Below are positions 5,715-63,960 of a DNA stretch of 64,000 nucleotides, piece by piece (position 1 is the stretch's first letter; each line of letters starts with the position of its first letter). A program made the position numbers and the translations under genes. The notes beneath the pieces were generated by a model that was not told the origin of the DNA, did not search any database, and saw only the letters and a program-made list of their open reading frames with translations. This DNA is from an uncultured Planctomycetales bacterium (GTDB taxonomy: Bacteria > Omnitrophota > Gorgyraeia > Gygaellales > Profunditerraquicolaceae): contig CAZRVK010000002.1 in the NCBI GenBank assembly GCA_964603585.1, positions 243,561-307,560 of the forward strand, given 5' to 3'.

Positions 5715-6542
5715 ATGATAAAAAGTATGACTGGGTTTGGCGGCAGGCATGAGAAAGATAGCCGTGCCGGCAAGATCAGTGTGGAGTTAAAGAGCACCAA
5801 CCATAAATTCTTAGAAGCGGTTTTACATTTGCCGGATGGATTTTTATCTATAGAGGATAAGATCCGTAAAGAGATCGAAGCGCGGCTGAAGAGAGGCAGG
5901 GTAACCTGCGTGGTGAATATTTCCGCCCCGCAAAAGGAAAATATTTCCATTAATGAATCGGTTTTAAGGAAGTATATTTTTTCTCTGAAGGGGGTGCAAA
6001 AGAAATTCCGTATGGAGAATACGGTTACGCTGGATACCTTGATTCGGCTGCCCGGAGTATTAATCGTTTCCGAGGCCGAGGCGGATAAAGCGGCTGTTTG
6101 GCCGCGGATAAAGAATTTATTGCTGGCGGCGTTAGATGATTTGGTAAAGATGCGGCAGAAAGAAGGCCGGGCGCTTGAAGTAATTTTAAAAAAGCGCGCG
6201 CAGGAGTTGAGTCGAGAGTTAACCGCGCTAAAGGCACGGTTTAAAAAGGTAATGCAGACAAAATCCGCGGAGATTATTTCGGACGAGGAACGAGCAAGCT
6301 TTTTAAAAAACGCCGATATTACAGAAGAGATCGATCGCCTGGAGTATCACATTAAAAATTTGTTGCATAAACTTTCGCAAAAAGCGCCGGTCGGCAAGGA
6401 GCTGGATTTTATTGCCCAGGAGATGCAGCGGGAGGCAAATACTATCGGGGCTAAGTCATGCGATACCCTAATCTCCGCTCGAGGGGTGCAAATGAAAAGC
6501 CATATTGAAAAGATCCGGGAACAGGCGCAGAACATAGAGTAG
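5715..6542 (+). CDS. yicC: YicC-family stress-induced protein
   Basis: N-terminal MIKSMTGFG typical of YicC/YloC family; about 276 aa coiled-coil rich. ORF track start 5640 likely over-extended. Confidence 0.75.
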   Translation: MIKSMTGFGGRHEKDSRAGKISVELKSTNHKFLEAVLHLPDGFLSIEDKIRKEIEARLKRGRVTCVVNISAPQKENISINESVLRKYIFSLKGVQKKFRMENTVTLDTLIRLPGVLIVSEAEADKAAVWPRIKNLLLAALDDLVKMRQKEGRALEVILKKRAQELSRELTALKARFKKVMQTKSAEIISDEERASFLKNADITEEIDRLEYHIKNLLHKLSQKAPVGKELDFIAQEMQREANTIGAKSCDTLISARGVQMKSHIEKIREQAQNIE

Positions 6543-34363: not shown

Positions 34364-34766
34364 TGCCCTGTCGTCTAATCGGTAGGACTTCAGATTCTGC
34401 CGTGAACCAAACAAACCACTTCGTTGTTGGTTCACGGCAGCCATGAACCGAACGAGCAGGCGAAAAAGGCAAAGCGAGTTCTGGTTCATGGCTGGACTAC
34501 CAAGCAAGATGTATTTCACATACATTTTATGGAGTAAGCAGAGTAAGAAGTTTTATATTGGATTTACAGCGGACCTGATAAGAAGAGTTGATGAACATAA
34601 GAGAGGATGTGTATATTCTACTCAACGGGTGATTAATCCGGAACTTGTTTTTTACGAAGCGTTTCTTTCGGAAAGCGATGCGAGAAGGCGCGAAGGATAT
34701 TTTAAGACAAGCAAGGGAAAGAAGGCGTTGAGAATAATGTTACGGGATACCCTATTTGAATAATTT
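34364..34766 (+). repeat. tandem repeat unit 2 (identical copy)
   Basis: Same as unit 1; directly abuts position 1 of the intact tRNA-Gln. Confidence 0.85.
34509..34763 (+). CDS. GIY-YIG nuclease-family protein, copy 2 (identical)
   Basis: Identical protein to copy 1. Confidence 0.7.
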   Translation: MYFTYILWSKQSKKFYIGFTADLIRRVDEHKRGCVYSTQRVINPELVFYEAFLSESDARRREGYFKTSKGKKALRIMLRDTLFE

Positions 34767-36497
34767 TGCCCTGTCGTCTAATCGGTAGGACTTCAGATTC
34801 TGGATCTGACTATCATGGTTCGAGTCCATGCGGGGCAGCCATTGTTGACAACTATCCGAAACTCCGGATAGTGATGCAGTGGGAACAAGCGCCTTACAGT
34901 CTTCTGTAGGGCGCTTTTCCTTTGTAGAGGCTATTTCGCTAGGGAGGATGCCTTCAAGCGGCTCTTCGATATACATATTGATTACCAGCCTGTCGCTATA
35001 GACGTAAATGTCCTTGATCAGGGCATGTATAAGGCTTTTCTGGGCTTCCGGAGGGGCGTCTTCAAGGTGCTGTATGGCAAAGTTCATGCTGCGGTATACG
35101 AGCTCGCCGGAACAGGCGTTTATGCTGGCAACTCTCTTTTGCGCCTGCAGCTTGTCTATTTCGTCTTCCAGTTTTGCAATCTCCATTTCCAACTCATTCA
35201 TTTTGTCTTTATAAGTGGAGCCTTTGGTGACTGTGTTGCCCATGGCTAATTCCAGCAGTTTATTGGCTTGGAAGCGGAAGCCGTTTAGCTTTGTCTCTCT
35301 TTCTTTTAAGTCGGTCTCTATCTTTTCAAGCTTTGCCTGCGACTCAAGCATGGCGTCTCCCAGGGCCTTTATGATAATGCCCTTGTCCTCAGATGCCCGC
35401 CTAAAATAGTCGATTATAGCTTTGTCAAAAGTAGTTGCGGAGATGCGTGTTGCTTTGCATCCCAGAGCCTGCTTGGAGCGGCTGCACTCATAATAAAAAA
35501 ACTTTCTTCTGTCTCTACCGCCTGAAAAATTGCAGACCATATGGCTTCCGCAGTCGCCGCATCGGAGAATACCGGCGAGGAGGTATTCATAGAATCTTTC
35601 TTTCTGCACAAAGTTGTGGCCGGGAAGCTTGGCGCTCAATATTTTGTTGGCCCGCTCCCAGAGCTTCTCATCGACAATCGCCGGGTGATTGCCTTTGTGG
35701 TATTCTCCGCTGTATTGAATATAGCCTTTGTAAAAAGGATTTTTTAATATCCTTGAAATAACCTGCCTGCGCCATTCCTTGCCGTTTAGAGTTTTTAGCC
35801 CGCGCCTGTGAAGCTCAAGGCCTACCTGCGTAAGCGACCGGTTATCCGCGGCCATCTCCCAGATGATTTTAAGATGCGTAGTTATTTTTTCATCAGGAAC
35901 AATTTTATGCGGCTGGCGGCCGTTAGGAAGCGGCTCTCCGTCTGGTATAAGCTTATATCCATAAGGCAGCATCCCGCCGACCCATTTGCCCTGGCGCACT
36001 CTGGCAATAGCGGATGCTTTCACGCGCTCGCCGGTGAGCTCCCGCTCAAAGGCTGACAAAATCCCAAGTATGCCAATTACTACTCTACCTATGGCGGTTG
36101 AGCTGTCCAAGTTTTCTCTTACCGAGACGAAATCGATTTCCTTTTCTCTGAATAGATCAATAAGCCAGTAGAGGTCCCGGGTATTGCGGGTCAAGCGGTC
36201 AAGGCGGAAGAAGATTATTCCGTCAAATGGGGCGGTTTCTCTACGCACGCGGTCGATAATCATCTGGATGCCGGGCCGGTTGAGATCCTTGCCGGAATAT
36301 CCGTCATCGTCTATTCGGCCTTTTTTGCCTATCTTGGCAAGGTCATATCCAAAAGCGTCCAGCAGATTCTTGCAGTGATAGGCCTGGGAATCCAGGGTGG
36401 TAAAATCTCCCTGGGCCTGGTCATCAGTAGAGCAGCGGGTATAGATTACATAGCGTTTTTTGTTATTTGCATTATTTGTTTTGGCATTCATAATCAT
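34752..36497 (-). CDS. large serine recombinase (phage integrase)
   Basis: N-terminal resolvase catalytic domain (YVIYTRCSTDDQ), recombinase domain, zinc ribbon (CGDCGSHMVC...YYECSRS), coiled coil. Likely start MIMNAK at 36497; the track ORF extends to 36620. C-terminal codons overlap tRNA-Gln antisense. Confidence 0.8.
   Translation of the reverse strand: MIMNAKTNNANNKKRYVIYTRCSTDDQAQGDFTTLDSQAYHCKNLLDAFGYDLAKIGKKGRIDDDGYSGKDLNRPGIQMIIDRVRRETAPFDGIIFFRLDRLTRNTRDLYWLIDLFREKEIDFVSVRENLDSSTAIGRVVIGILGILSAFERELTGERVKASAIARVRQGKWVGGMLPYGYKLIPDGEPLPNGRQPHKIVPDEKITTHLKIIWEMAADNRSLTQVGLELHRRGLKTLNGKEWRRQVISRILKNPFYKGYIQYSGEYHKGNHPAIVDEKLWERANKILSAKLPGHNFVQKERFYEYLLAGILRCGDCGSHMVCNFSGGRDRRKFFYYECSRSKQALGCKATRISATTFDKAIIDYFRRASEDKGIIIKALGDAMLESQAKLEKIETDLKERETKLNGFRFQANKLLELAMGNTVTKGSTYKDKMNELEMEIAKLEDEIDKLQAQKRVASINACSGELVYRSMNFAIQHLEDAPPEAQKSLIHALIKDIYVYSDRLVINMYIEEPLEGILPSEIASTKEKRPTEDCKALVPTASLSGVSDSCQQWLPRMDSNHDSQIQNLKSYRLDDRAKLFK
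34767..34841 (+). tRNA. tRNA-Gln(CTG)
   Basis: U1-A72 acceptor TGCCCTG/CGGGGCA, D arm GTCT-AATCGGTAG-GGAC, anticodon stem TCAGA/TCTGA with loop TTCTGGA, T arm CATGG-TTCGAGT-CCATG, then GCCA. Confidence 0.8.
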
Positions 36498-36571
36498 AGA
36501 ATTCCTACCACATTTTAATGCAGGCATACGCCAGGCAGAAGATCTCCTTCTGCCTGGCGGCGCTAAAACAG

Positions 36572-36915
36572 TTATGCCTGGGCCTTCTGCTTTTTGCCTT
36601 TTCCCCAGCCAGCCTTCCATCTGGCCACTGCCCCGGAGACGATCTCGTTGATGCGCTCCTGGGTTGTGCCTTCCTTGAGGATCTCAACAAGCTCTTCTTT
36701 GTTGATTACCCGGAAGTTTTTGATGCCGCGCTCTTTGGCTTTAAGCATCAGCTCATGGCGCGACGACTCTTTGGCGGCTGATTTGCCGGCTTCAGGCTCT
36801 TTTGTAGCTTCTACCGGCGCGCTGGCTTTTTGAGTTTTTGATTTTTTCTTGCCGTAATGCTTGGCGTGGAGCTTGCTCAAAAACTCTCTGTCTTTCTTTT
36901 TCTGCTCAGCAGTCA
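36572..36915 (-). CDS. hypothetical phage protein with Rho_N/SAP-like motif
   Basis: Basic Lys-rich protein; LKAKERGIKNFRVINKEELVEIL resembles Rho N-terminal/SAP motif. AAGGAGG RBS supports a start at 36915. Confidence 0.4.
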
Positions 36916-39171: not shown

Positions 39172-40512
39172 ATGCCGAAGATTAACGTAAAACCGGACAT
39201 CCGCGACATCGCCATGTCCGAGATAAAGCCTGCGCCTTATAACCCAAGAGAGATTTCTGAGCAGGCGCTGATGGGCCTAAGGCACTCTCTGGAAAAGTTC
39301 GGGCTGGTGGATTTATTAGTGGTCAATAAGCGCACGATGCATATCATTTCAGGACATCAGCGCTATAAGGTCCTGCAGGCTGACGGCGCAAAGACTGTAA
39401 CTGCGATTATGGTTGACTTAGATGAGGCTTCGGAAATGGCCATGAATGTGACTCTAAACTCCCAGCAGATAGTAGGAGCCTGGACAGCTGCCCTAATTCC
39501 TATTTTAGAAAAGCTGCGCAAGGATATGCCGGAGGATTATTTGTCTTTAAGGCTTAAGGAGCTGCGGGAAGAGGTTTCTAAACTTGAGATGGAAAGCTTA
39601 GGAGCTGGCAAAACCCTGCCGGATGATCTGCCTGAACCGCCTCCTGAAACAATTACTAAAAAAGGCGACCTTTGGATCTTGGGCGAGCATAGGCTTTTGT
39701 GCGGAGATTCAACCAAGGAAGAGGATGTTTCAAGATTAATGGACGGTAAAACTGCCAAGCTCTTTGCGACTGATCCGCCGTATCTAGTGGACTACACCGG
39801 AACCGGCAGGCCGAAAGGCGACCACGGCCAAGGAGGCAAAGACTGGTCCGGGGTTTATCATGAGATTGACATTGAGGATGCAGAAAGCTTTTTAAGGGAT
39901 TTCCTAACCCGCGGCTTAAAGGTCATTGAAGCCAACACGCCGATTTATCTTTGGCACGCTTCAGCACGTATAGTTCTAATCAGAAAAATCTGCGACGAAT
40001 TAAATATCCTGGTGCATCAGCAGGTGATCTGGGTCAAGCCCTGCGCAGTCCTATCTTTTGCCTATTATCCCTGGAGGCATGAGCCGTGTTTACTATGCTG
40101 GCAGAAAGGCCATAAGCCGAATTACCGGCCTCTTGATAAGGCAATAGGCACGGTCTGGACAATAGATTTCCTAAGAACAGGAGATCCTTCAAATCCCGAA
40201 TACCACTCGGATGTCTGGGAGCTGGACTGGGAAGGCAAAAAAAGAAACACCGGGCTTTATCATCCCACAGTCAAGCCTACTGAAGTTTTTGCTATCCCAA
40301 TGCGCGTGCATACTTCAGTGGGTGATATTTGCTTTGAGCCATTTTCAGGATCAGGTTCTCAAATTATCGCAGCTGAACGCTTAAACCGTAGGTGCTTTGC
40401 TATGGAGATTGAGCCGGTGTTTGTTGACGTAGCCATACAAAGATGGACAGATTTTAGCGGCAAGGAAGCGGTCCGGGAAAGCGACGGTAAAACTTGGAGC
40501 GAACTTAAATGA
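39172..40512 (+). CDS. ParB-like nuclease domain / DNA methyltransferase fusion (beta-class N6A/N4C MTase)
   Basis: N-terminal ParBc motif (IISGHQRYKV); MTase motif IV DPPY (KLFATDPPYLVDY) precedes motif I (CFEPFSGSGSQ). Confidence 0.75.
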   Translation: MPKINVKPDIRDIAMSEIKPAPYNPREISEQALMGLRHSLEKFGLVDLLVVNKRTMHIISGHQRYKVLQADGAKTVTAIMVDLDEASEMAMNVTLNSQQIVGAWTAALIPILEKLRKDMPEDYLSLRLKELREEVSKLEMESLGAGKTLPDDLPEPPPETITKKGDLWILGEHRLLCGDSTKEEDVSRLMDGKTAKLFATDPPYLVDYTGTGRPKGDHGQGGKDWSGVYHEIDIEDAESFLRDFLTRGLKVIEANTPIYLWHASARIVLIRKICDELNILVHQQVIWVKPCAVLSFAYYPWRHEPCLLCWQKGHKPNYRPLDKAIGTVWTIDFLRTGDPSNPEYHSDVWELDWEGKKRNTGLYHPTVKPTEVFAIPMRVHTSVGDICFEPFSGSGSQIIAAERLNRRCFAMEIEPVFVDVAIQRWTDFSGKEAVRESDGKTWSELK

Positions 40513-53579: not shown

Positions 53580-53980
53580 AAAGACGCATTATCGGGAAAT
53601 ATCTCGGCATCCCTTATCAGCACAGGGCCCGGTCCTTAGCAGGTCTTGACTGCTGGGGATTTTTAAAGTTTGTCTATGCTGATCTAGGCGTACGGCTGTT
53701 TGATATTGAGGACTTAGAATACTCAAAGGTCTGGGGCATGGAAGGCAGAGATTATTTTAAGGAACATTACTTTCATGACTGGTTTCAGGTTAAAGAGCCG
53801 CAAGTTTTAGATGGGATATTGTTTGTGAATTCGAGAAGAATCGCCAATCACGCAGGCATTGTTTTAAGCAACAAAAGATTTATTCACTGCTGCAGGCAGG
53901 GAGTGATTATTTCTAGGATAAACGATCCTTCCTGGCTGCCAAGGATAGAGGGTTTTTACCGGCTAAAGGCGAAAGTATGA
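53504..53980 (+). CDS. tail assembly protein gpK-like (NlpC/P60-type)
   Basis: LDCWGFLKFVYADLGVRL with downstream His: NlpC/P60 Cys-His pattern. Confidence 0.55.
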   Translation: MQTIEQLSEVRGFPFGADTAHLRDVERRIIGKYLGIPYQHRARSLAGLDCWGFLKFVYADLGVRLFDIEDLEYSKVWGMEGRDYFKEHYFHDWFQVKEPQVLDGILFVNSRRIANHAGIVLSNKRFIHCCRQGVIISRINDPSWLPRIEGFYRLKAKV

Positions 53981-56900
53981 TTATCATACGCAATATAACC
54001 AATCCTTTTAAACCAGAAGACGCAGAGCTTAAAAGGATAGATTATTCCCGGCATAAGACTCTGCAGGAAGTTTTAATTGAATCCGGATTTGATTACCAAG
54101 ATAAGCGCGTTATTGTCAGCGGCAAGCGTATTGAGAACCTGTCTGCTTATCTTGATAACGAAGATGAGATTACCATTATCCCTGAAGTCAAAGCGCCGGT
54201 AGTGGCAATTATCTCTGCCATAGTGTCAGCAGTCTGGGCTGTGGCCGTAGCGCATCCGTTCTTATTTGCCTTCTTTGTGCTCTCCATGGGCTATGCCATT
54301 TACCAGAATATGAACCAGCCTAAGATGCCGGATTTTAACCTCGGAGGCGCAGCCGGACTTGATGAGGGCTCGCCTACCTACGGCTGGGACGGTGTGCAAA
54401 CTATCCAGGAAGTAGGAGTGCCGGTAGCAATTGTTTACGGCGAGCATAGAATCGGCGGCAATATTATTAATCAATTCCTTTGGGAAGACGGAGATAACCA
54501 TTATTTAAATGTCCTGCTTGCGCTTTGCGAAGGAGAGATTGAGTCAATAGAAGCAATAGAGATTAACAATAACCCCATTGATAACTTCGGCGGAGTGACG
54601 GTTTCAAAGCGCTTTGGCACAAACTATCAGAACCTTATCAGCAATTTTGAGGATCTGCATAATCTTTATCCGGTTAACGCCAATCTGGTTAAAAATAATC
54701 CTTATGTCTACACCACAGTGGATTCGGATGTGGAAGGCTTTGAGATCCACTTAAGGCTGAATAACGGCCTTTACCAGCAAAGCTCTGGCTCAGGTGATAT
54801 CCAGAGCTGGAGTGTGACTTATAAGGTTGAATACAAACTGCATTCAGAAGGTGCCTATATTGATTTAGGCGAAACTACCATTTCGGAAAAATCCCGCTCA
54901 ACCGTGCGCCGGGTGTTTCGCAAAGCTGGGTTAACTCCTGGACAATACGATATCAGGATCACCCGCACCTCAGATGACAGTTCGCTTTCGCCTTTAAAGC
55001 AGGGCGATTTAACCTTATTTCAGATAGATGAGCTGAAGACTGACGACTTAAGTTATCCAAATACTGCGCTTTTGGGCCTGCAGCTTTTAGCCACAGACCA
55101 GCTTAACGGCGGAACGCCGAATATTACCGCGGTTGTAAAGGGCAAAAAAGTGTTAGTCCCGGATATCCGTAACAGCGGAGTGCCGGTTAACTGGGAAAAC
55201 TACTACTGGGACGGCAGTAATTATCGGCTCTTATCTGATGATACCTTACTTGAATGGGACGGCTCAACTTATGTTGAGGCATACTCGGCTAATCCGGTTT
55301 GGTGCCTAAGGGACTTTATTGTTAATCACCGTTACGGGCTGGGTGAGTTTATTTTAACGCAGCATCTGGACAACGCCTCACTCTTGGAGATGTCGCAGTA
55401 TTGCGAGGAAAAGGTTGCCGACGGAAAAGGCGGTTTTGAGAAACGCTTTAGATTAGATGTAGTTATCGACTCCAATCATAAGGCCCTGGATATCCTCATT
55501 CAGTTAAGCGCTGTATTTAATGCTATGCCTGTATACAGCGCAGGAGGGATTACCTTTAAGATAGACAAACAGACTTTGCCTACTCAGCTTTTCGGCATGG
55601 GTAATATCATCAAGGACAGTTTTGTGCAAAGCTGGAAGACGATTAAGGAAGTGCCGAATGTGATTGAGGTGCAGTTTACAGATAAAGAGAAAAACTACCG
55701 CCAGGAGACCATTGCTTATATTGATGAGCAAGCCTTAGCTAACGGCGAGCCGATGCGCAAAAGCCAGGTGCGTCTATTTACTACCGGCGCAAGTTATGCA
55801 ATACGGGCAGCGCGCTATGCCTTAAAAGTAGCAAAGTATATCAACCGTTCAATTGTTTTTAAGGCAGGCATTGACGCGGTTGCCTGCCAGGCAGGAGATA
55901 TTATTTCTCTTTCGCATGATGTGCCGCAGTGGGGTTTCTCAGGCAGGGTAAAAGCAGGTTCTACTGCGACCTTAGTTAAGCTGGATCGTGCAATGACCAT
56001 TGAGGACGGTAAGTCCTACAAGATACAAATCAGATTTTCCGACGACTCCATTGAGGAAAGCACGATTACCTCGCCAGCCGGAACCTATACCGAGCTTGAA
56101 TGTTTGGCATTTAGTAAAGCACCGCAGGATTTTGATGTTTATGCCATAGGCGAGACAAATAAAGTCAAAAAGGATTTTCGGGTGGTAGCCATTCAACGAG
56201 AAGGCAAGAACGAGGTGCAGATTCAGGCTCTGGAGTATAACGAGGCAGCTTACGATGATTCTGATATTATCCTGCCTCAGAATAATTATTCGGCGCTTTC
56301 CGGCGAGATTCCGCTGGTGACAAATCTTACCTTAACCGAATCCCTGGTGAAGAAAACCGACGGCACCATTGAGAATGCCATTGATGTCTGGTTTGACCGG
56401 CCGGTATTTGTTGATCACTATGTCAAATCATTTGCCAAGGCAAAGATCTATTTGAGCGATGATAACGGTTTAAGCTGGGGAGCCAGGGGTGAAACTGCCG
56501 GCTCTTATTTTAGAATTATCGGCGATATCGTAGACAGACACACCTATAAGGTCAAGGTTACATCATTGACCGATATGGATGAGGAAAGCTCTTTAGCTGC
56601 AGCGCCCGAAGCCTCAATCACAGTCGTGGGCAAGTCTGCGCCTCCAAGCGATGTCTCGACCTTCCTGGTTAACCAGAACAGGGATCAGCTTTATTTCGGC
56701 TGGAGCGAGATTCCGGATGTGGATGTCTGGGGATATGAAATCAGACGCGGGGTAGACTGGGAAAGCGGGGAGGTAATAACATTCCAGCAGGGGACGCATT
56801 ACCTGGCCACCGGCCTTAAAAAAGGCATTGACCAGAAGTTCTGGATTAAGGCCATTGATACCTCAGGCAACTATTCTGCAAACCCCATAGAGTCGGTCCT

Positions 56901-57597
56901 TACTGTAGGGGAAATCCCCTTTAGGAATGTTATCGCCGAGTTTCAGGAGCACCCCTTATGGCAGGGTATAAAGACGAATCTTGAAATCAGTGTTGAAACA
57001 TTGATAATTTCCGACGGGTTTTTATCCGGCGAATACGAAATGCTGGTGCGGGACTTAGGCTATGTGGCAGCAGCTTTCATTGAGATAGAGGCAATTGTTT
57101 CCTTGTCAACCGGCAGAAGATTTGACAGCGATCCCAATGCCAGGTTTAACGACAGTTTGTCTTACCGCTTTACCGGCCAGGAAACCCAGCGTCAGGCAAG
57201 TTTTAAGATTCGCCTCTCAGAAGACAATATCAACTGGTCAGAGTGGCTGGATTATCAGCCCGGAGATTATTACTGCAGATACTTCCAACTAAAGATGATC
57301 TTAGCCAGAGAAAACTTAGGCGATTATGTGACCTGCTCAACCCTGCAGTACCTGGCTGACCTTCCGGACGTGGATGACTTCGGCAGGGATGAAGTCACAG
57401 ATGCAAACGAGGGCAAAGAGGTATTTTTTACCAAGACGTTTCATGAGGAGCCGAATGTGCATATTGAGATAACTTCCGGAGCAGGCGTTTATATACAGTT
57501 TGTGCATAAGACCACAACCAGCTTTAAGGCCAAATTATTTAATGCTCAAGGCGCTGCGCAGACCGGCCATTTTGACTGGCACGGCCATGGAGTATAG
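53977..57597 (+). CDS. host specificity protein gpJ-like with N-terminal gpI-like domain (I-J fusion)
   Basis: 1206 aa; N-terminal ubiquitin-like/TM segment resembles gpI; GEHRIGGNIINQF...LALCEGEIESI resembles the phage-tail_3 domain of J proteins. Confidence 0.7.
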   Translation: MIIIRNITNPFKPEDAELKRIDYSRHKTLQEVLIESGFDYQDKRVIVSGKRIENLSAYLDNEDEITIIPEVKAPVVAIISAIVSAVWAVAVAHPFLFAFFVLSMGYAIYQNMNQPKMPDFNLGGAAGLDEGSPTYGWDGVQTIQEVGVPVAIVYGEHRIGGNIINQFLWEDGDNHYLNVLLALCEGEIESIEAIEINNNPIDNFGGVTVSKRFGTNYQNLISNFEDLHNLYPVNANLVKNNPYVYTTVDSDVEGFEIHLRLNNGLYQQSSGSGDIQSWSVTYKVEYKLHSEGAYIDLGETTISEKSRSTVRRVFRKAGLTPGQYDIRITRTSDDSSLSPLKQGDLTLFQIDELKTDDLSYPNTALLGLQLLATDQLNGGTPNITAVVKGKKVLVPDIRNSGVPVNWENYYWDGSNYRLLSDDTLLEWDGSTYVEAYSANPVWCLRDFIVNHRYGLGEFILTQHLDNASLLEMSQYCEEKVADGKGGFEKRFRLDVVIDSNHKALDILIQLSAVFNAMPVYSAGGITFKIDKQTLPTQLFGMGNIIKDSFVQSWKTIKEVPNVIEVQFTDKEKNYRQETIAYIDEQALANGEPMRKSQVRLFTTGASYAIRAARYALKVAKYINRSIVFKAGIDAVACQAGDIISLSHDVPQWGFSGRVKAGSTATLVKLDRAMTIEDGKSYKIQIRFSDDSIEESTITSPAGTYTELECLAFSKAPQDFDVYAIGETNKVKKDFRVVAIQREGKNEVQIQALEYNEAAYDDSDIILPQNNYSALSGEIPLVTNLTLTESLVKKTDGTIENAIDVWFDRPVFVDHYVKSFAKAKIYLSDDNGLSWGARGETAGSYFRIIGDIVDRHTYKVKVTSLTDMDEESSLAAAPEASITVVGKSAPPSDVSTFLVNQNRDQLYFGWSEIPDVDVWGYEIRRGVDWESGEVITFQQGTHYLATGLKKGIDQKFWIKAIDTSGNYSANPIESVLTVGEIPFRNVIAEFQEHPLWQGIKTNLEISVETLIISDGFLSGEYEMLVRDLGYVAAAFIEIEAIVSLSTGRRFDSDPNARFNDSLSYRFTGQETQRQASFKIRLSEDNINWSEWLDYQPGDYYCRYFQLKMILARENLGDYVTCSTLQYLADLPDVDDFGRDEVTDANEGKEVFFTKTFHEEPNVHIEITSGAGVYIQFVHKTTTSFKAKLFNAQGAAQTGHFDWHGHGV

Positions 57598-57600
57598 CAA

Positions 57601-57816
57601 ATGGGAAAGAATCTTATACCGGCAAAGGTAATTATTGAATTCGATAACGGCGCTTTTTCAAGCGGCGTTATTATTTATAAAGTCAATGACAACGGCGCCA
57701 TAAGCCGGGTTAAAACTATTGGCATAAAGAATGCTGATTTCAGCAGACCGATGCTGAACGGCCTGCTGCAGAAATTTATTCAGCATGCGCAAAGCGCAGA
57801 AGGAATTCAAGAATGA
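57601..57816 (+). CDS. hypothetical protein (71 aa)
   Basis: ORF only. Confidence 0.3.
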   Translation: MGKNLIPAKVIIEFDNGAFSSGVIIYKVNDNGAISRVKTIGIKNADFSRPMLNGLLQKFIQHAQSAEGIQE

Positions 57817-58091
57817 TCTGCTCAAGATGCAAGCAGGAGATTCCTAAAGACATGGCTTATGTGTTGATAAAGGGAAACATTATTCTGCGCGCTCCTAAAA
57901 AGCGGCCTTTGGTGTTTACCTGTATTGAGCAGGCATTTAATTACGCGCAGGCTCTTTTTATGCACGATGTCTGCTGGATTGAAACCTTAAGAGAGCACGG
58001 CGTTGAGCTTTACGATATGAATAAGGTAGCAGAGCAATACAAGAACAAGGAGGTTTCCGATGGCTTGGGACAAGACAAAGCCGGAAAATGA
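57813..58091 (+). CDS. hypothetical protein (92 aa, CxxC N-terminus)
   Basis: ORF only; MICSRCKQEI. Confidence 0.3.
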   Translation: MICSRCKQEIPKDMAYVLIKGNIILRAPKKRPLVFTCIEQAFNYAQALFMHDVCWIETLREHGVELYDMNKVAEQYKNKEVSDGLGQDKAGK

Positions 58092-58560
58092 CATGCTTTT
58101 GATTAACTTCCCGGCTGCCTGCAGGGCAAACTGGGAAGCCTTGGAGCTAGGCACAGATCCGAATCTTTTAATAACGAATGCTAAAGTAGCGCCCGGTGCC
58201 GGCATAGAAGACACTAAACTTGCGCAGATAGTTACGCCGAATAAGGTAAGCGGCGCAGCTTTAACCGGCCTGGCAAATATTCCTTCTGCAGCAGGGGTCC
58301 TGCCGGAGGTAAACTCGCCGAATAAACTCAAGGCTGATGTCAGCGATACAACCCCGGAGTATTTAGAATCTCTTGTTGATGCAGGGGTATTTCAAATATC
58401 AGCCGGCGACCAGCTGCAGTTAAAAGACGGCGGCGTTCAGACCCAGAAATTAGAAGGCGGAGCTGCTTCGCCCGGCAATAAAAAATACTACGGCACAAAC
58501 GCTTCCGGCACAAAAGGTTTTTTTGATATCGGAGGAGGCACAGCAGTTTACGCGCCTTAA
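58060..58560 (+). CDS. hypothetical tail-fibre-region protein (166 aa)
   Basis: Gly/Ala-rich; position distal to J. Confidence 0.35.
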   Translation: MAWDKTKPENDMLLINFPAACRANWEALELGTDPNLLITNAKVAPGAGIEDTKLAQIVTPNKVSGAALTGLANIPSAAGVLPEVNSPNKLKADVSDTTPEYLESLVDAGVFQISAGDQLQLKDGGVQTQKLEGGAASPGNKKYYGTNASGTKGFFDIGGGTAVYAP

Positions 58561-58563
58561 ATT

Positions 58564-59301
58564 ATGGCACATTTATTACCGCCAAAACAATGCTCGTCAA
58601 ATTTACCCAGTTGGACTGATCCTACGCTTACGGACTTGACCACTGAGATCCGTAAAGTCCACATGGATGAGCTGCGCTCATTTTTAAATAATGAATTTAC
58701 GCGCAGAGGCAAATCTCAGGGCAGTTACACAGACCCTGCGATTACCGCCCTGGTCACTGAAATCCGTAAAGTCCACATGGATGAGCTAAGGTCGGAATTG
58801 TCAGCCTGTAAATCCGGCAGGGGCGAGTCAGGCTACTGCCCGCAGGATAATTCCGGCTGCATGGATTTTACAGACCCGGTAATTACTGCTCTCGTAACAG
58901 AAATTAGAGGAGTGCATTTCCGCCAGGCAAGAAGCAAGGTTGAGGTTTTAATGACCAGCTGCATCTGCGAGACCGAACAGTGCCAGTACTGCGCAGACTG
59001 CGGCTATTACTACCAGACCTGCTCGCATGCAGGCGTAGCCTGCGATAACCATAAATACAACGAATGCATGCATTCTATAAATAATTATTGGATCTGCGCC
59101 AGTATCAATCTGCCCTCGGGGGCAGCGCATCCTTACAAGGCAGCTTCAGGGGATCCGCTTTCAACAACGCCCTGGGACGGCTACGTGCCCTGGGATTGGT
59201 GCGTATATGCTCCGCCCGGGTCTAACTGGGGATCCTGCGAATATCAGGGCGGGCATGACCATACTGCCTGGAACTGCAAATGCAACCCATACACATGGTA
59301 A
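58564..59301 (+). CDS. Cys-rich protein with three tandem about 22-aa repeats (candidate radical-SAM substrate)
   Basis: Repeats TDPTLTDLTTEIRKVHMDELRS / TDPAITALVTEIRKVHMDELRS / TDPVITALVTEIRGVHFRQARS; 17 Cys, 13 of them in the C-terminal about 120 aa, with many Trp/Tyr. Confidence 0.6.
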   Translation: MAHLLPPKQCSSNLPSWTDPTLTDLTTEIRKVHMDELRSFLNNEFTRRGKSQGSYTDPAITALVTEIRKVHMDELRSELSACKSGRGESGYCPQDNSGCMDFTDPVITALVTEIRGVHFRQARSKVEVLMTSCICETEQCQYCADCGYYYQTCSHAGVACDNHKYNECMHSINNYWICASINLPSGAAHPYKAASGDPLSTTPWDGYVPWDWCVYAPPGSNWGSCEYQGGHDHTAWNCKCNPYTW

Positions 59302-59663
59302 ACGACAAATTTTTAACGAAGAAGATTTCAGAACAGGAAAAAGAAAGCAGCGTCAGCGAGCTGCTCCACTGGGTTAAAGACAATCTTAAAGATGAAGATG
59401 CAGCTGAGTTTACCCGGAATAAGTTTAGTACTCTCAGAGCGTTTACAGCAGCGGTGCAGGAAACCTATCAGGCATTAGGGGTAAGGGGAGAAAAAGGCCT
59501 TGAGTCTGATTTTATGCTCGTTATTGCCGGAGGCCGTAAAGCTAAGATTTACGTTTCCTGCTGCATTCCGCTTACCCGGGCGCACAAAGATATATTCCTG
59601 CAGAAGCTGGGCGCCGAGCTGGAAGAGATAGACCAGAATTTAAGCAAATTGACTTGGAGGTAA
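59280..59663 (+). CDS. hypothetical protein (127 aa) between Cys-rich protein and rSAM genes
   Basis: ORF only; overlaps upstream stop. Confidence 0.35.
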   Translation: MQPIHMVNDKFLTKKISEQEKESSVSELLHWVKDNLKDEDAAEFTRNKFSTLRAFTAAVQETYQALGVRGEKGLESDFMLVIAGGRKAKIYVSCCIPLTRAHKDIFLQKLGAELEEIDQNLSKLTWR

Positions 59664-59664
59664 G

Positions 59665-60879
59665 ATGGCGGTATTTGAATTGGCCAGGACAAATATAACA
59701 GGCAGTCTTCCGGAGCAGTGCCGGGATGTAATTAAGAAATACAAATCAGACGGCATGTTTGATATCTGCTCGATTACCAGCGGCAGGCAGGACTATACCA
59801 CAGTCTATTTTTTGATGACCCAGGACTGCAATTTAAACTGCGCATACTGCTATCAGCCGAAGGAATTCCGCAGCAAAGAAGCAGTGATTACTAAACAAAT
59901 TATTGACGATACCATGACTTGGGCTCTAAAGACATTTGATGAGGCTAAGATTAAATTCAGTATCTTTGGCGGCGAGCCGTTTCTAAATACCACGATGATT
60001 AAATATCTCTGTGGTACTTACTGCATGTACCGCTATGTGGTTACTACTAACGGCCTTGTGCTGCTAAAGGACGCTGCCTTGCGCGAATGGGTCTTAAAAC
60101 ATAAATATCATCTGAATTTAAGCGTGAGCATTACCGCGCTTCGCCAGGTCCTTGGCCAAAGATATTTAGATGAGGCAGGGCCGGTGCTGGATCTGATAAA
60201 AGCTAACGGCGGAGATGCGCATTATGTGATTGACGATCCTGACCGCCCGGGCATTTATGAAGAGATTGTCCGACTCTATGAATACGGCATTCCTGTGGTA
60301 AGGGTTTCCTCAGCCAGGCATTGGGATCTGATCAAAGAGAAGAATGAGGCATACAAGTCATTATTCAAAAGAATAGCAGACTACATTTATTTTACCGGAG
60401 AGCCTAAGTTTGGAAGGAGCCAGTGGGATATTGCCTTAAAGAATAACCTTTATAGAAAACTCAAAGGCGTGCCTTTAAAGCAGGTACCGCCCACGTTCTG
60501 CGGTTGCGGTTATTTGTATCTGGCGGTTAATCATAAAGGCGAGATTTATCCCTGCGACTTCTTTGCCAATTTCCCGGAGTTTAAGATCGGCGATATCTAC
60601 TCAGGATTTAACGAGACAGCTTATTTCTTCAAGAAGATGGGCGACTGGATAGATGAGCTTTATGAGGACTGCCGGAACTGCACGGTATGCGAAGGCTGCG
60701 ATATCCGGCTCTGCCCGCGGGCAATGTGCCTGGCAGAAAATTATATCGTAAACGGCAGCCCTTTAAAGCCGGCAGCAAACCACTGCTGGGCGAATAAGGC
60801 TGAGTACGCCAACTTTGAATACATTGCTAAGAAGGCAATTGCTCTGGGCATCGATGAGCTTTATTACAGGGGAAAATGA
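59665..60879 (+). CDS. radical SAM / SPASM-domain protein 1
   Basis: CNLNCAYC (CX3CX2C) at about 59827; C-terminal CGCGYLYLAVNHKGEIYPCD and CRNCTVCEGCDIRLCPRAMC auxiliary-cluster motifs. Confidence 0.75.
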   Translation: MAVFELARTNITGSLPEQCRDVIKKYKSDGMFDICSITSGRQDYTTVYFLMTQDCNLNCAYCYQPKEFRSKEAVITKQIIDDTMTWALKTFDEAKIKFSIFGGEPFLNTTMIKYLCGTYCMYRYVVTTNGLVLLKDAALREWVLKHKYHLNLSVSITALRQVLGQRYLDEAGPVLDLIKANGGDAHYVIDDPDRPGIYEEIVRLYEYGIPVVRVSSARHWDLIKEKNEAYKSLFKRIADYIYFTGEPKFGRSQWDIALKNNLYRKLKGVPLKQVPPTFCGCGYLYLAVNHKGEIYPCDFFANFPEFKIGDIYSGFNETAYFFKKMGDWIDELYEDCRNCTVCEGCDIRLCPRAMCLAENYIVNGSPLKPAANHCWANKAEYANFEYIAKKAIALGIDELYYRGK

Positions 60880-61955
60880 AGATACCGTTTTATAAAACAG
60901 TTTACCTTTATCTTACACATGCCTGCAATTCAGGGTGCAGCTTCTGCTACCGCCGGGGATTATTTACCCGAAACAAACCCGAAAGCCTTGGCCCCCGGTT
61001 TATGAGCGAGGAGACAGCTTTCAGGATCCTGGAGTTTGTATTCTCAGAGCTTAAGCTGGATCCTAAATTTGCCGTCTACTTCTGGGGAGGGGAGCCGTTA
61101 TTAAACTTTACGGTGATAAAAGCTGTGGTTGAAAAACTTCCGCAGTTTTTATACCACACCAACACTAACGGCGCGCCCATAAATCAGGGTATGTATGACT
61201 GGCTGAGCAGGCACAAGAATTTAAGCTTTACCTGGTCCCTGGGCAATGCCTATGAAAAATACGGAAGCTTAAAAGCAAAAGTTTATGCAGAGCCCTGGGG
61301 CTTAAAGCTGGTAAAAGAAAACCCGCAGCATAATGTCAACTTCATGGTCACGCAGTACGGCAGGCTGGCTGAGGATTTTGATTTTTTAATTAATAACGTG
61401 ACCCGCAATGTCACCATAGACCTGGCTACAAGGTTTGAGCATAAAGAGGAGGATCTGGAAGAGTTTGCTGAGCAGTATCTTAAGCTGCTTTTGAAATACA
61501 GAGATGATAAAGAGCTGTATCGGGAAATTAATCCGGCAATACACTCCAACCTTTATTTTAAGGAGTTCGGGTTTAAGGCGCAGGTAGAGGATTTTCATTA
61601 CTGCCGGTCTGGCTTAGAAAGGATTTTTATTGATACCCAGGGCGGTATCTGGCAGTGCGACAACATGTATATCTGCCAGCATAATAAATTAGGGGATATC
61701 GAGAAAGGCATTGATTATTCAAAGCTTGACCTTGCCTGGGAGATCGACGCCAACAGGGAAAAGTATCTTGGGCAGTACTGCCGGGATTGCGAGCTTTACC
61801 GCTTGTGCCCGCGTAATAAATGCTTAGGTCTAAACCTGGAATGGATGGGGGATATGTTTAAGCCGGAGCCGTCATTCTGTAAGATGTGCAAAGTCTTATT
61901 CAAAATAACCAAACGCTACATTGAGCTTGAAAAGGAGGCGAGATTATGCAGCTGA
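60876..61955 (+). CDS. radical SAM / SPASM-domain protein 2
   Basis: CNSGCSFC at about 60924; C-terminal CRDCELYRLCPRNKC and FCKMC. Confidence 0.75.
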   Translation: MKIPFYKTVYLYLTHACNSGCSFCYRRGLFTRNKPESLGPRFMSEETAFRILEFVFSELKLDPKFAVYFWGGEPLLNFTVIKAVVEKLPQFLYHTNTNGAPINQGMYDWLSRHKNLSFTWSLGNAYEKYGSLKAKVYAEPWGLKLVKENPQHNVNFMVTQYGRLAEDFDFLINNVTRNVTIDLATRFEHKEEDLEEFAEQYLKLLLKYRDDKELYREINPAIHSNLYFKEFGFKAQVEDFHYCRSGLERIFIDTQGGIWQCDNMYICQHNKLGDIEKGIDYSKLDLAWEIDANREKYLGQYCRDCELYRLCPRNKCLGLNLEWMGDMFKPEPSFCKMCKVLFKITKRYIELEKEARLCS

Positions 61956-63097
61956 AGGAAAACGAAATCAAAAGCATCGATTTATTCATTACCGAGCAGT
62001 GCAACATGAAATGTGACTACTGCTTTCATAATCAAACTGATGCGGTGTTGTCAGTTGAGCAGGGCAGGAAGATCCTGGAGCGAATGAAGGCATTAAGCCC
62101 GGGTAATCTGCAGATTACCTTTTTTGGCGGCGAGCCACTGTTGTATCCGCAGACCGTATTGCAGCTGGCTGAATACGCCAGAACGCTTTGGCAGCCCGAC
62201 AAAGAAGGAAGGCATACATCGACATTTTCTATTTCAACGAACGGCATGTTCTTTGATGAGGACGTCTTTAAGAAATTTGCCGAGCTTGGCATGGCCATTC
62301 AGGTCAGCTGCGACGGAGATAAAATTACCCAGGAAGAATACCGGCACGGAGACCACGCGCTTATCATTGAAAATATGAAGAAGATTTTAAAGCTAAAGCC
62401 GGATATGAGCGTGCGCATGACTTTCACACCTAAGACAGTAGGCAGGCTGGCTATTAATATCCAGTATCTTCATGAGCTTGGCGTTGCCAAGATTACACAC
62501 CATGCGGTGATGGAAGAGGACTGGACAGAAGAAGCAGTCCAGCAGTACCAGTATCAATTAGCTCAGGTTTATCATTACCGCAGGTACTGCAAAAGGCAGG
62601 ATATCCCTCTTGAGATCGCTTTCATTGATAAGCCCCTCAAAGTCCTTAACGATGAAATCCCTGCAGAGAAGGAATACTGCCAGGCAGGCAAAAGCTACAT
62701 TGCCGTATTAGACAACGGAGATGTTTACCCCTGCCACCGTGCAGCAAGCGCCAGGCTCTTTAAGCTGGGAAGTATCTTTGACGAGATTCCTTTTATCAGG
62801 GGAATCTTTTTAAATATAGACAAGGAATACACCGGCTGCTGGAAAAACTGCAGGCACTCCAGAACCTGCCACAGCTGCATTATTACGCACTTTAAGGTCA
62901 ACCAGGAATTAAACGCGCCTTTAGCAAAATACTGCAAGCTCTGCGCTGTGGAAAACAATCAGGCATTAGGATATCTGCCGGTTGAGTTAGCTGACCGCAG
63001 GGAGCGGATGCTTTATAAAATAGGCAATGTCCTGGTGGATGTTGCCAGGCAGAATGAGGAAATCTTAAGACTGCTCAAGATAAAAGGAGGGGTTTAA
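61946..63097 (+). CDS. radical SAM / SPASM-domain protein 3
   Basis: CNMKCDYC at about 62000; C-terminal CQAGKSYIAVLDNGDVYPCH and CWKNCRHSRTCHSC. Confidence 0.75.
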   Translation: MQLKENEIKSIDLFITEQCNMKCDYCFHNQTDAVLSVEQGRKILERMKALSPGNLQITFFGGEPLLYPQTVLQLAEYARTLWQPDKEGRHTSTFSISTNGMFFDEDVFKKFAELGMAIQVSCDGDKITQEEYRHGDHALIIENMKKILKLKPDMSVRMTFTPKTVGRLAINIQYLHELGVAKITHHAVMEEDWTEEAVQQYQYQLAQVYHYRRYCKRQDIPLEIAFIDKPLKVLNDEIPAEKEYCQAGKSYIAVLDNGDVYPCHRAASARLFKLGSIFDEIPFIRGIFLNIDKEYTGCWKNCRHSRTCHSCIITHFKVNQELNAPLAKYCKLCAVENNQALGYLPVELADRRERMLYKIGNVLVDVARQNEEILRLLKIKGGV

Positions 63098-63099
63098 CC

Positions 63100-63390
63100 A
63101 TGGGCAAAGTTATAAATCACGAGGAGATAACGGTTGAGGATATAGTAAAGAGCTTAAATCCGGCAGTATACAATCCGGGCAGCGGCGAGTCAGCTTCTTT
63201 TGCGCTTATCCATGCCGAAGGCGGGCCGATGAGATATTTTGTCAACGGCCAAAACCCTACGCCGTCATCCGGAGCGCTTTTAGAAGATGGAGACATTGTG
63301 GAGCTGCCGTCAATTTATCATATTAAGGATTTTAGGGTGGTTAAGTCAGGAGACGACCCGGGCAAACTCACCGTAACTTACGAGGCTTGA
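63100..63390 (+). CDS. hypothetical protein (96 aa)
   Basis: ORF with GGAGG RBS. Confidence 0.35.
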   Translation: MGKVINHEEITVEDIVKSLNPAVYNPGSGESASFALIHAEGGPMRYFVNGQNPTPSSGALLEDGDIVELPSIYHIKDFRVVKSGDDPGKLTVTYEA

Positions 63391-63405: not shown

Positions 63406-63960
63406 ATGCAGCTGCATCTTAAACACAGAAAGGCAAGCAGAATACTTAAAAGGGTCTATGAGATAAATTCCGACGGAGGCCTTCCTAAGACCGGCCAGAG
63501 CATGATTTATCAGCCCGGAGACGACGGCTCATACCAGATGGGCTATCCTCTCGGCGGAGAAGCAAGGTTTATTGACAACGCAGATGGTACGGTAGTCGAT
63601 TTGGCCACGGGTCTTATGTGGATAAAAAATCCGCAGGAGGCAGGATTAGGTTCTCCTATGTACTGGTATGACGCAATCAATGCCTGCGAGAATCTTGACT
63701 TTGCCGGACACAACGACTGGAGGCTTCCGAATATAAACGAGCTGATGTCTATTGTGGATCACTCCAGATATGACCCGGCATTTGACCCGCTCTTTTTTAC
63801 GCCGTTTTCGGATACCTGGACTCCTTGCTGGTCCTCAACTTCAAGCGCGTCTTGGATAGACGGCGCGTGGGCAATGTATCCCTATGACGGCTATAAGACT
63901 ACCTGGGGAAAACCCTGGGATATGTGTTATGTCAGACCTGTAAGAGGCGGGCAGGCTTAA
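63406..63960 (+). CDS. DUF1566 (Lcl C-terminal-like) domain protein
   Basis: GLMWIKNP...NDWRLPNINELMSIVD matches the DUF1566 signature. Confidence 0.6.
   Translation: MQLHLKHRKASRILKRVYEINSDGGLPKTGQSMIYQPGDDGSYQMGYPLGGEARFIDNADGTVVDLATGLMWIKNPQEAGLGSPMYWYDAINACENLDFAGHNDWRLPNINELMSIVDHSRYDPAFDPLFFTPFSDTWTPCWSSTSSASWIDGAWAMYPYDGYKTTWGKPWDMCYVRPVRGGQA

Follow-up and report, generated by a model that had tools for sequence, protein, structure and literature searches.

A 64,000-nucleotide window of contig CAZRVK010000002.1 (assembly GCA_964603585.1, positions 243,561 to 307,560), from an uncultured bacterium deposited as Planctomycetales and placed by GTDB in the Omnitrophota, carries a prophage whose tail module contains a gene for a cysteine-rich protein with a triple repeat, here called CysR, followed by genes for three radical S-adenosylmethionine (rSAM) enzymes of the SPASM type, rSAM1, rSAM2, and rSAM3. 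On comparative sequence evidence, we give an even chance to the reading that CysR is a fibre-tip protein whose Cys-rich domain is cross-linked within its own chain by these phage-encoded maturases. CysR is proposed as the substrate because its linkage to the enzymes is conserved in order, the enzymes belong to a Cys-directed class, acidic and amide residues lie among its invariant cysteines, and enzyme content tracks its Cys-rich core. The genes and the domain at issue are the following.

58564..59301, plus strand: CysR, the Cys-rich triple-repeat protein and proposed substrate (245 residues, 17 Cys, ATG start)
58960..59298, plus strand: C-terminal Cys/aromatic-rich domain of CysR and proposed modification site (residues 133–245, 113 residues, 13 Cys)
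59665..60879, plus strand: rSAM1, radical SAM/SPASM enzyme of 404 residues (CNLNCAYC at residue 55; clade 1)
60876..61955, plus strand: rSAM2, radical SAM/SPASM enzyme of 359 residues (CNSGCSFC at residue 17; clade 2)
61946..63097, plus strand: rSAM3, radical SAM/SPASM enzyme of 383 residues (CNMKCDYC at residue 19; clade 3), the most conserved of the three

The cassette was traced through a sample of 39 viral contigs, 11 genome contigs, and several metagenome contigs. Of the 32 loci whose downstream DNA is long enough, 31 carry orthologues of rSAM1, rSAM2, and rSAM3 behind the Cys-rich gene with the order unchanged, and shorter contigs agree with this order as far as their DNA reaches. Many of the sampled loci represent one prophage lineage. 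The backbones that carry the cassette include a lambda-J-like siphovirus in the window, a second siphovirus, whose tape measure differs (locus L001), and a myovirus gene set with gpV, PAAR, and gp25, in which the cassette follows the baseplate genes (L002); two distant cassette loci, L003 and L042, show 32–34% identity. Conservation does not extend to the remaining neighbours of the cassette, which differ from one backbone to the next. Judged from these comparisons, the cassette is a mobile phage tail module that has come to lie in unrelated tail and baseplate gene sets. Homologous Cys-rich open reading frames (ORFs) beside rSAM genes, which the sequence-only reading had suggested seeking in other prophages, are thus present in several phage backbones, and its proposal that CysR is the likely substrate of the rSAM triad gains support from the synteny, from the unrelated backbones, and from the enzyme class, support that is indirect but strong.

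A scan of one genome per species gave the same arrangement in 11 loci, 8 of them labelled Candidatus Omnitrophota. Locus L050 (NZ_CP019384.1, 1855632–1868366) carries the prophage tail region and belongs to Ca. Velamenicoccus archaeovorus LiM, whose genome is closed and which lives in a limonene-degrading methanogenic enrichment; the same tail region, at 75–96% protein identity, is shared by L049, L050, and L051–L059, in many Omnitrophota metagenome-assembled genomes (MAGs). A few carrier contigs bear the bin labels Planctomycetales, Saccharibacteria, or Dehalococcoidales, perhaps through misbinning. No DNA match was found among GenBank phages, and no CysR homologue among 50,697 GenBank phage records. 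In L003, an 81-residue acyl-carrier-like protein (PP-binding) is encoded at 5779..6024, a few genes upstream of CysR.

The CysR gene is real and under strong purifying selection, since a word-indexed search returned 48 homologues (32–89% identity, all from metagenomes or MAGs) and the ratio of nonsynonymous to synonymous substitution rates (dN/dS) is 0.042 against its closest relative, L049. CysR of L049 is 96% identical to that of the window over a region of about 84–86% nucleotide identity, and by dN/dS in this comparison CysR ranks among the most constrained genes of the module. The cysteines lie at positions 10, 82, 92, 99, 133, 135, 140, 143, 146, 153, 160, 168, 178, 213, 225, 238, and 240; the final 115 residues hold 13 Cys, 7 Trp, and 11 Tyr, in keeping with the earlier description of a C-terminal stretch of about 120 residues with 13 Cys and many Trp and Tyr. 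The C-terminal domain opens with C-I-C-E-T-E-Q-C-Q-Y-C-A-D-C-G. Across 25 aligned members, ten cysteines are invariant (C92, C133, C135, C140, C143, C146, C160, C178, C238, and C240), as are E136, E138, Y142, D145, G147, W210, W222, W236, N241, and P242, so that the motifs CICExEQCxYCxDCG and WxCKCNP are kept throughout. Within the C-terminal domain, the invariant acidic residues E136, E138, and D145 are interspersed with invariant cysteines.

CysR has no match in Pfam, PHROG, or NCBIfam family searches or in a sequence-profile search of the PDB. A precomputed match to PF27469.1 is recorded for one CysR homologue (P0007, 65% identity), and a recent Pfam entry may thus span a portion of it; the local Pfam copy contains no model that matched P0007 or any other of the 25 aligned members, and the accession PF27469 is not mentioned in the searchable literature. 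Two homologues carry an extra N-terminal domain before the conserved H-x-L-P-P-x-Q-C start, of about 175 residues in P0009 (421 residues) and about 70 residues in P0044 (331 residues).

All three enzymes contain the CxxxCxxC motif and possess SPASM-type cysteines of the GxxxxC and CxxCx5C types; the Pfam matches are to Radical_SAM and Fer4_12. PapB, a ranthipeptide maturase, is the top NCBIfam family for each (E = 3e-30 for rSAM1, 3.8e-26 for rSAM2, and 8.8e-51 for rSAM3), and the next-best matches include the SCIFF, CXXX-repeat, QhpD, and CcpM maturases, which are Cys-rich-peptide or thioether enzymes. The SPASM model TIGR04085 scores 35.1 bits for rSAM1 and 29.5 bits for rSAM2, both above the cutoff of 27. 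For rSAM3, positions 2–328 of the 330 in the PapB model are aligned, and the Pfam SPASM match (E = 0.0013, 19.4 bits) falls below the 21.5-bit cutoff. By these profile scores, rSAM1–3 are closest to the PapB family but are not members of it; the radical SAM/SPASM enzymes of the related cassettes L043, L045, and L048 likewise match PapB best.

In a neighbour-joining tree, the enzymes of the different cassettes fall into three clean clades, with orthologues 33–90% identical by position and paralogues 18–28%. All three genes are under purifying selection (dN/dS 0.06–0.11 against L049). The distant rSAM3 matches in the GenBank phage search are unannotated faecal contigs; the best distant rSAM3 match is an ordinary SCIFF maturase adjoining SecDF and was set aside as irrelevant. 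An N-terminal recognition element (RRE) of the kind found in enzymes for peptides that are made by ribosomes and modified after translation (RiPPs) appears to be absent from rSAM1–3 by NCBIfam alignments and motif positions, because the alignments begin at about positions 90–100 of the SCIFF and QhpD models and CxxxCxxC lies at residues 17–55, leaving N termini too short for an RRE.

Enzyme content varies among the relatives of CysR. L043 encodes a protein with three repeats and a shortened C-terminal domain that lacks the P-W...P-P-G...C225 stretch, and it has two rSAM enzymes, one each of clades 1 and 3. Clade 2, the rSAM2 clade, is missing from L043, L045, and L048 and occurs only with the long C-terminal domain, whereas clade 3 is present in all cassettes examined. 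Short-tail relatives of about 140–166 residues consist of three repeats and a 20–45-residue tail rich in Cys, His, Asn, and Asp that opens with CxC[D/N]C, and the opening motif CxC[E/D/N] is common to CysR and these proteins. Three short-tail contexts have enough flanking DNA for comparison: L045 contains three SPASM enzymes; L048, between gpV and PAAR/gp25, contains two SPASM enzymes and one B12-binding rSAM enzyme; and on the 176-kb P0138 contig a sheath-initiator-like gene is followed by five similarly sized genes, three of them rSAM genes. The B12-binding enzyme of L048 (5034..6575, 513 residues) is probably a methyltransferase. The simplest reading of these gene sets is that enzyme content follows the Cys-rich core and not the number of repeats, and in the few lineages concerned the pattern suggests that the Cys cluster common to the relatives is the target of rSAM1 and rSAM3, and the distal part that of rSAM2.

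The gene immediately upstream of CysR appears to belong to the same unit, and a further small ORF lies between CysR and the enzymes.

58060..58560, plus strand: fibre-like protein (orf166), 166 residues, ending in GGGTAVYAP; conserved partner upstream of CysR
59295..59663, plus strand: small accessory ORF (orf127); its listed start is 59280, and the likely ATG at 59295 overlaps the CysR stop

In 10 distinct loci, the gene directly upstream of CysR encodes a protein ending in Y[AGSKY][PSAE] (AVYAP, AVYAS, VTYGA, HAYYA, AIYAP, AKYKA, PKYAP, AVYAP, ATYAE, and PTYSA). Such an ending is found in 8 of the 179 plus-strand ORFs of at least 80 residues in these loci, and these are exactly the partner genes; it is absent upstream of the short-tail relatives on the very short contigs L046 and L047. 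The partner proteins are not similar to one another by BLAST, and the counterparts in L048, L001, L029, and L043 match tail-fibre or tail PHROGs. Because the C-terminal ending is shared and tail-fibre PHROGs are matched upstream of CysR, the mobile unit, as far as sequence comparison defines it, is the fibre-like protein together with CysR and the enzymes. A single-chain three-repeat domain following a fibre with a conserved terminal tail further suggests docking in a 3:1 arrangement, with one triple-repeat domain on a presumably trimeric fibre.

The small ORF orf127 is conserved only in lambda-J-like relatives, at 30–46% identity compared with 62–84% for its neighbours, and its nonsynonymous rate (dN 0.259, against 0.03–0.11 in the neighbours) is five to eight times faster. 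A weak homologue follows rSAM3 in L001 (14216..14593). The orf127 protein itself has no Pfam or PDB-sequence match, and the RRE-like fold that the sequence-only reading had thought worth seeking here and in the rSAM N termini was not found for it in an AlphaFold model of low confidence (pLDDT, the predicted local distance difference test, of 59). A role as an assembly factor or adaptor is a candidate one.

The N-terminal part of CysR is built from three repeats of 26 residues each, as the sequence-only reading had seen in outline, with the common pattern W/Y/F-T-D-P-x-[IL]-T-x-L-x-T-E-I-R-x-V-H.

58612..58689, plus strand: repeat 1, residues 17–42 (WTDPTLTDLTTEIRKVHMDELRSFLN), an extended segment and then the start of helix 31–47
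58726..58803, plus strand: repeat 2, residues 55–80 (YTDPAITALVTEIRKVHMDELRSELS), which holds the 26-nucleotide tract 58762–58787
58867..58944, plus strand: repeat 3, residues 102–127 (FTDPVITALVTEIRGVHFRQARSKVE)

AlphaFold2 predicts residues 10–133 with confidence (pLDDT 65–93 per ten-residue block), with helices at 31–47, 69–84, and 116–131, each preceded by an extended segment. The N-terminal domain is thus predicted to comprise three strand-plus-helix repeats packed as a compact three-helix bundle. At the DNA level, repeats 1 and 2 are indeed nearly identical (58608–58673 and 58722–58787, 82% identity over 66 nucleotides, with the third copy weaker), and they share an exact run of 26 nucleotides (58648–58673 and 58762–58787), a length reached by none of 200 codon shuffles. 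This likeness had been taken for a recent duplication, an explanation ruled out by the presence of three repeats in every CysR homologue, which makes the repeats ancient, and by repeat 2 of L049, which departs from the tract at 4 of 26 positions, including Ile for Met. Because the tract is missing in the 96%-identical L049 protein and every homologue has the repeats, the 26-nucleotide identity is a recent, lineage-specific gene conversion of repeat 2 by repeat 1.

The repeats within one CysR are 52% identical, whereas the same repeat across orthologues is 44% identical, a difference reached in none of 5,000 permutations, which indicates that the repeats evolve in concert and are homogenised within each protein, not specialised. 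They also occur far beyond CysR. An exhaustive profile search found the triple repeat in 3,461 protein clusters (clustered at 50% identity) at E values up to 1e-3; only 13 of these reach 1e-30 or better and are essentially full-length CysR matches, and almost all of the remainder match the repeat region alone, in proteins of 92–2263 residues and often at the C terminus. The large proteins that bear it include RHS, invasin/fn3, Ig/PKD/CARDB, and beta-propeller-like secreted proteins. Two signal-peptide proteins join the same three repeats to unrelated Cys-rich C termini, with no rSAM neighbour in either context, and the gene for one repeat-bearing signal-peptide protein adjoins a thioredoxin/GILT-like gene. 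On this distribution, the triple repeat appears to be a widespread general module and not a triple leader. The widespread unit reads W-T-D-x-x-I-T-A-x-x-T-x-I-R-K-V-H-I-x-E-L-R and nearly always occurs in 2–3 copies (proteins P0046–P0194); no model for it is present in the local Pfam copy, and a word-indexed search with the repeat domain alone gave 5 matches and was uninformative.

The prophage around the cassette encodes a large terminase, a portal, a major head protein, a tape measure, and minor tail proteins, and the following features lie outside the conserved unit.

34752..36620, minus strand: large serine integrase (phrog_95, 1e-107), upstream of the structural genes
39172..40512, plus strand: ParB-like/DNA methyltransferase fusion (phrog_498, 2.3e-101), before the terminase
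53977..57597: lambda-J-like central fibre (phrog_31, 1.8e-152)
63100..63390: 96-residue ORF after rSAM3, conserved only among close relatives
63406..63960, plus strand: Lcl_C/DUF1566 protein (Pfam, 8.8e-28), conserved only among close relatives

The serine integrase probably marks the prophage end. Downstream of the J-like gene, the order is two small ORFs, the 166-residue fibre-like protein, CysR, the ORF of 122–127 residues, rSAM1–3, the 96-residue ORF, and the Lcl_C/DUF1566 gene. Start and stop codons in the cassette overlap or abut throughout, and no internal promoter or terminator signal in the cassette region rises above shuffled sequence. Among the larger genes, the Lcl_C gene is the least constrained (dN/dS 0.14; 43–82% identity between relatives), and the window ends 40 nucleotides past it. 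Since DUF1566 domains are known targets of diversity-generating retroelements, it may be the Lcl_C protein, and not CysR, that binds the receptor in a variable way. A small CxxC protein (orf92, 57813..58091, plus strand) overlaps the start of the fibre-like gene, and a 103-residue ORF is similarly placed in L001 (9244..9555). The likeness between the two is confined to about 17 residues (ICSRCKQEIPK and ICPHCKEVIEK; pairwise E = 0.006), and orf92 was not counted in the module because the similarity is this short CxxC stretch.

Taken as the favoured reading, these observations describe the following course of events. While the late genes are expressed, the three enzymes would cross-link the Cys-rich domain within the CysR chain in the anoxic cytoplasm of the host, with each paralogue serving its own sites: rSAM1 and rSAM3 those of the Cys cluster common to all relatives, and rSAM2 those of the distal part, present only in the long C-terminal domain. 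The best guess for the bonds, from enzyme similarity, is thioethers between Cys and Asp, Glu, or Asn side chains. CysR would be neither cleaved nor exported and would instead be mounted as the tip of a short fibre, with the triple repeat serving for structure or docking. A knotted tip domain that needs no disulfides would result, as would suit a virion that is put together under the reducing conditions of the cytoplasm and set free in anoxic habitats. CysR is regarded as an uncleaved structural protein because its gene sits inside the tail/baseplate morphogenesis module (in the window, L048, and L002), a fibre partner accompanies it, no conserved protease or transporter genes for leader cleavage or export are found in any cassette examined, no cleavage motif is seen, and constraint extends over its full length. 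Observation covers the gene with its repeats and its conservation, the synteny, the enzyme class, and the tail context; the substrate relation, the chemistry, the assignment of sites, the virion location, and the docking are what we infer. More tentatively, and at less than even probability, phages of anaerobes may mature a virion tail-tip protein with their own rSAM enzymes so that thioether or other radical cross-links take the place of disulfides, with the triple repeat capping the three identical ..Y-x-x tails of a trimeric fibre, perhaps covalently.

Several observations weigh against this reading. The relation between CysR and the rSAM enzymes rests on gene neighbourhood, and a single variant lineage, L043, is the basis for tying rSAM2 to the distal core. 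The profile scores leave room for more than one chemistry, as rSAM1–3 fall far below the equivalog cutoffs: 105.6, 92.1, and 173.1 bits for PapB (NF047865; cutoff 340 bits), 52–70 bits for QhpD (TIGR03906; cutoff 453 bits), and likewise far below the cutoff for SCIFF. Carbon–carbon or ether links, or formation of formylglycine, are possible products. Sequence and fold comparisons detected no homology of CysR to any known tail protein, and the AlphaFold2 model of the C-terminal domain, a check proposed in the sequence-only reading, gave no confident fold (pLDDT 30–54). The high conservation of CysR, among the most conserved proteins of the module, is atypical for a tip that determines host range, and the docking role of the repeats is conjecture.

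Three other explanations were weighed. The cassette could be a phage-borne RiPP or toxin unit (a moron) in which the modified C-terminal part of CysR is set free to act as a bacteriocin, signal, or exclusion factor and is no part of the virion. A precursor gene followed by rSAM maturases is the architecture of such a unit, accessory genes of phages are often found downstream of tail-fibre genes, and CysR matches no PHROG tail family. We nevertheless consider this explanation unlikely: a protease or exporter gene is conserved in no cassette, the junction (...EVLMTS|CICE...) bears no cleavage motif of the Gly-Gly type, a fibre-like partner gene always accompanies CysR, cassettes sit inside baseplate gene sets (with gpV-PAAR/gp25 in L048 and after the sheath-initiator-like gene on the P0138 contig), and strong constraint covers all 245 residues, the supposed leader included. 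A metal-binding tip, in which the Cys or Cys/His cluster binds Zn or an Fe–S cluster and the rSAM enzymes act elsewhere, or in which CysR is an Fe–S electron carrier, would account for the ferredoxin-like spacing C140-x2-C143-x2-C146-x6-C153 and for the Cys, His, Asn, and Asp of the short-tail relatives, which resemble metal-binding tails; metal sites are also known in phage tail tips, such as some spike tips and lambda gpL. This is the least probable of the three in our estimate, as CxxCxxC is not kept in the short-tail relatives, where only CxCx(1–4)CxxC is common, and as it leaves unexplained why CysR is so strictly linked to SPASM maturases of two or three different kinds and why rSAM2 tracks with the distal core. 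Apart from the fibre C terminus, moreover, no other conserved candidate substrate is present in the cassette.

The sequence-only reading itself had proposed that the three repeats direct the three maturases, each N-terminal repeat being a leader-like docking element for one enzyme. Three repeats do accompany three enzymes in most cassettes, enzymes without an RRE need some other recognition element, and the short-tail relatives resemble a long leader followed by a 20–45-residue Cys-rich core; large leader domains borrowed from ordinary proteins, such as the NHLP and Nif11 leaders, are known among RiPPs. The match in number fails in L043, with three repeats and two enzymes, and the other three-repeat relatives (L045, L048, and the P0138 contig) have varied enzyme sets. 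The repeat module is also found in its thousands of clusters, often at the C terminus of large secreted proteins and in the two contexts that lack rSAM genes, and the homogenisation of the repeats is the opposite of what would be expected if they discriminated among enzymes that are about 20% identical. We regard repeat-directed recognition as quite doubtful. The other possibility raised there, a receptor-binding domain stabilised by thioethers, comes close to the favoured reading of CysR as an internally cross-linked fibre tip.

Of the characterized systems, PapB of the PapB/PapA (freyrasin) ranthipeptide system, which links Cys to Asp/Glu side chains (PMC9413430), is the best-scoring family for rSAM1–3 and for the SPASM enzymes of the related cassettes. 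Both systems pair a radical SAM domain with SPASM, and the invariant Glu and Asp of CysR are interspersed with Cys. The systems differ in that the PapB substrate is a short peptide handled by one enzyme, whereas CysR is a two-domain protein of 245 residues accompanied by three paralogues that reach 92–173 bits against the 340-bit cutoff and belong to a phage tail module in which nothing points to leader cleavage or export. In the cytoplasm, QhpD introduces three Cys-to-Asp/Glu thioethers into QhpC, the gamma subunit of quinohemoprotein amine dehydrogenase, "instead of six disulfide bonds" (PMC7876137). By analogy, QhpC/QhpD is the closest functional precedent for CysR: a protein subunit, not a natural product, is cross-linked by a radical SAM/SPASM enzyme, and QhpD is among the better matches to rSAM1–3. 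In that system, however, a single enzyme makes all three links, and a 28-residue leader of QhpC is cleaved by QhpE before export by QhpF; qhpA, B, E, F, and G are absent from the CysR cassette, whose neighbours are phage tail genes. The SCIFF/CteB, CXXX-repeat, and CcpM enzymes belong to the same superfamily and act on Cys-rich substrates but have an N-terminal RRE of about 90 residues, whereas the rSAM1–3 alignments start at SCIFF positions 92–102.

On the structural side, separate fibre-tip proteins and adhesins, such as the gp38-type proteins of T2 and S16 and Tfa, are encoded just downstream of the fibre gene. The CysR gene is placed in the same way, its product is small enough that it could sit on the end of a fibre, and a further small, fast-evolving gene, orf127, follows it. 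These proteins share no sequence or fold similarity with CysR, which is conserved and not hypervariable, and we know of no adhesin that needs dedicated radical SAM enzymes. A further known parallel is offered by single-chain domains of three repeats with internal pseudo-threefold symmetry, including the BARA domain of Vps30/Beclin 1 and the SLH domains.

Small peptide natural products and one enzyme subunit, QhpC, are the known targets of radical SAM/SPASM maturases, and the pairing of such a maturase with a Cys-rich substrate is of a known kind. Full-text literature searches found no description of the cassette, and, within the searchable sources, four of its traits look new: its place among phage tail genes, a substrate of protein size that bears a generic three-repeat domain, a constant set of paralogous enzymes, and the fibre partner. 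The analysis also exposes a very common, unannotated three-repeat module (more than 3,000 protein clusters), and the CysR–rSAM system is amenable to a direct test by heterologous co-expression. If the favoured reading is true, radical SAM/SPASM chemistry would extend to virus particles, through a tail-module protein of 150–250 residues and two or three enzymes. On the more tentative reading, with its capped trimeric fibre, no earlier case of a structural protein of a virus maturing by RiPP-style radical chemistry would precede it, and the tail-tip modules concerned would form a class that is both new and widespread. RiPP enzymology would gain an RRE-less family of enzymes acting on a folded protein, and there would be an explanation of how the phages of strict anaerobes could make cross-linked extracellular domains without disulfides.

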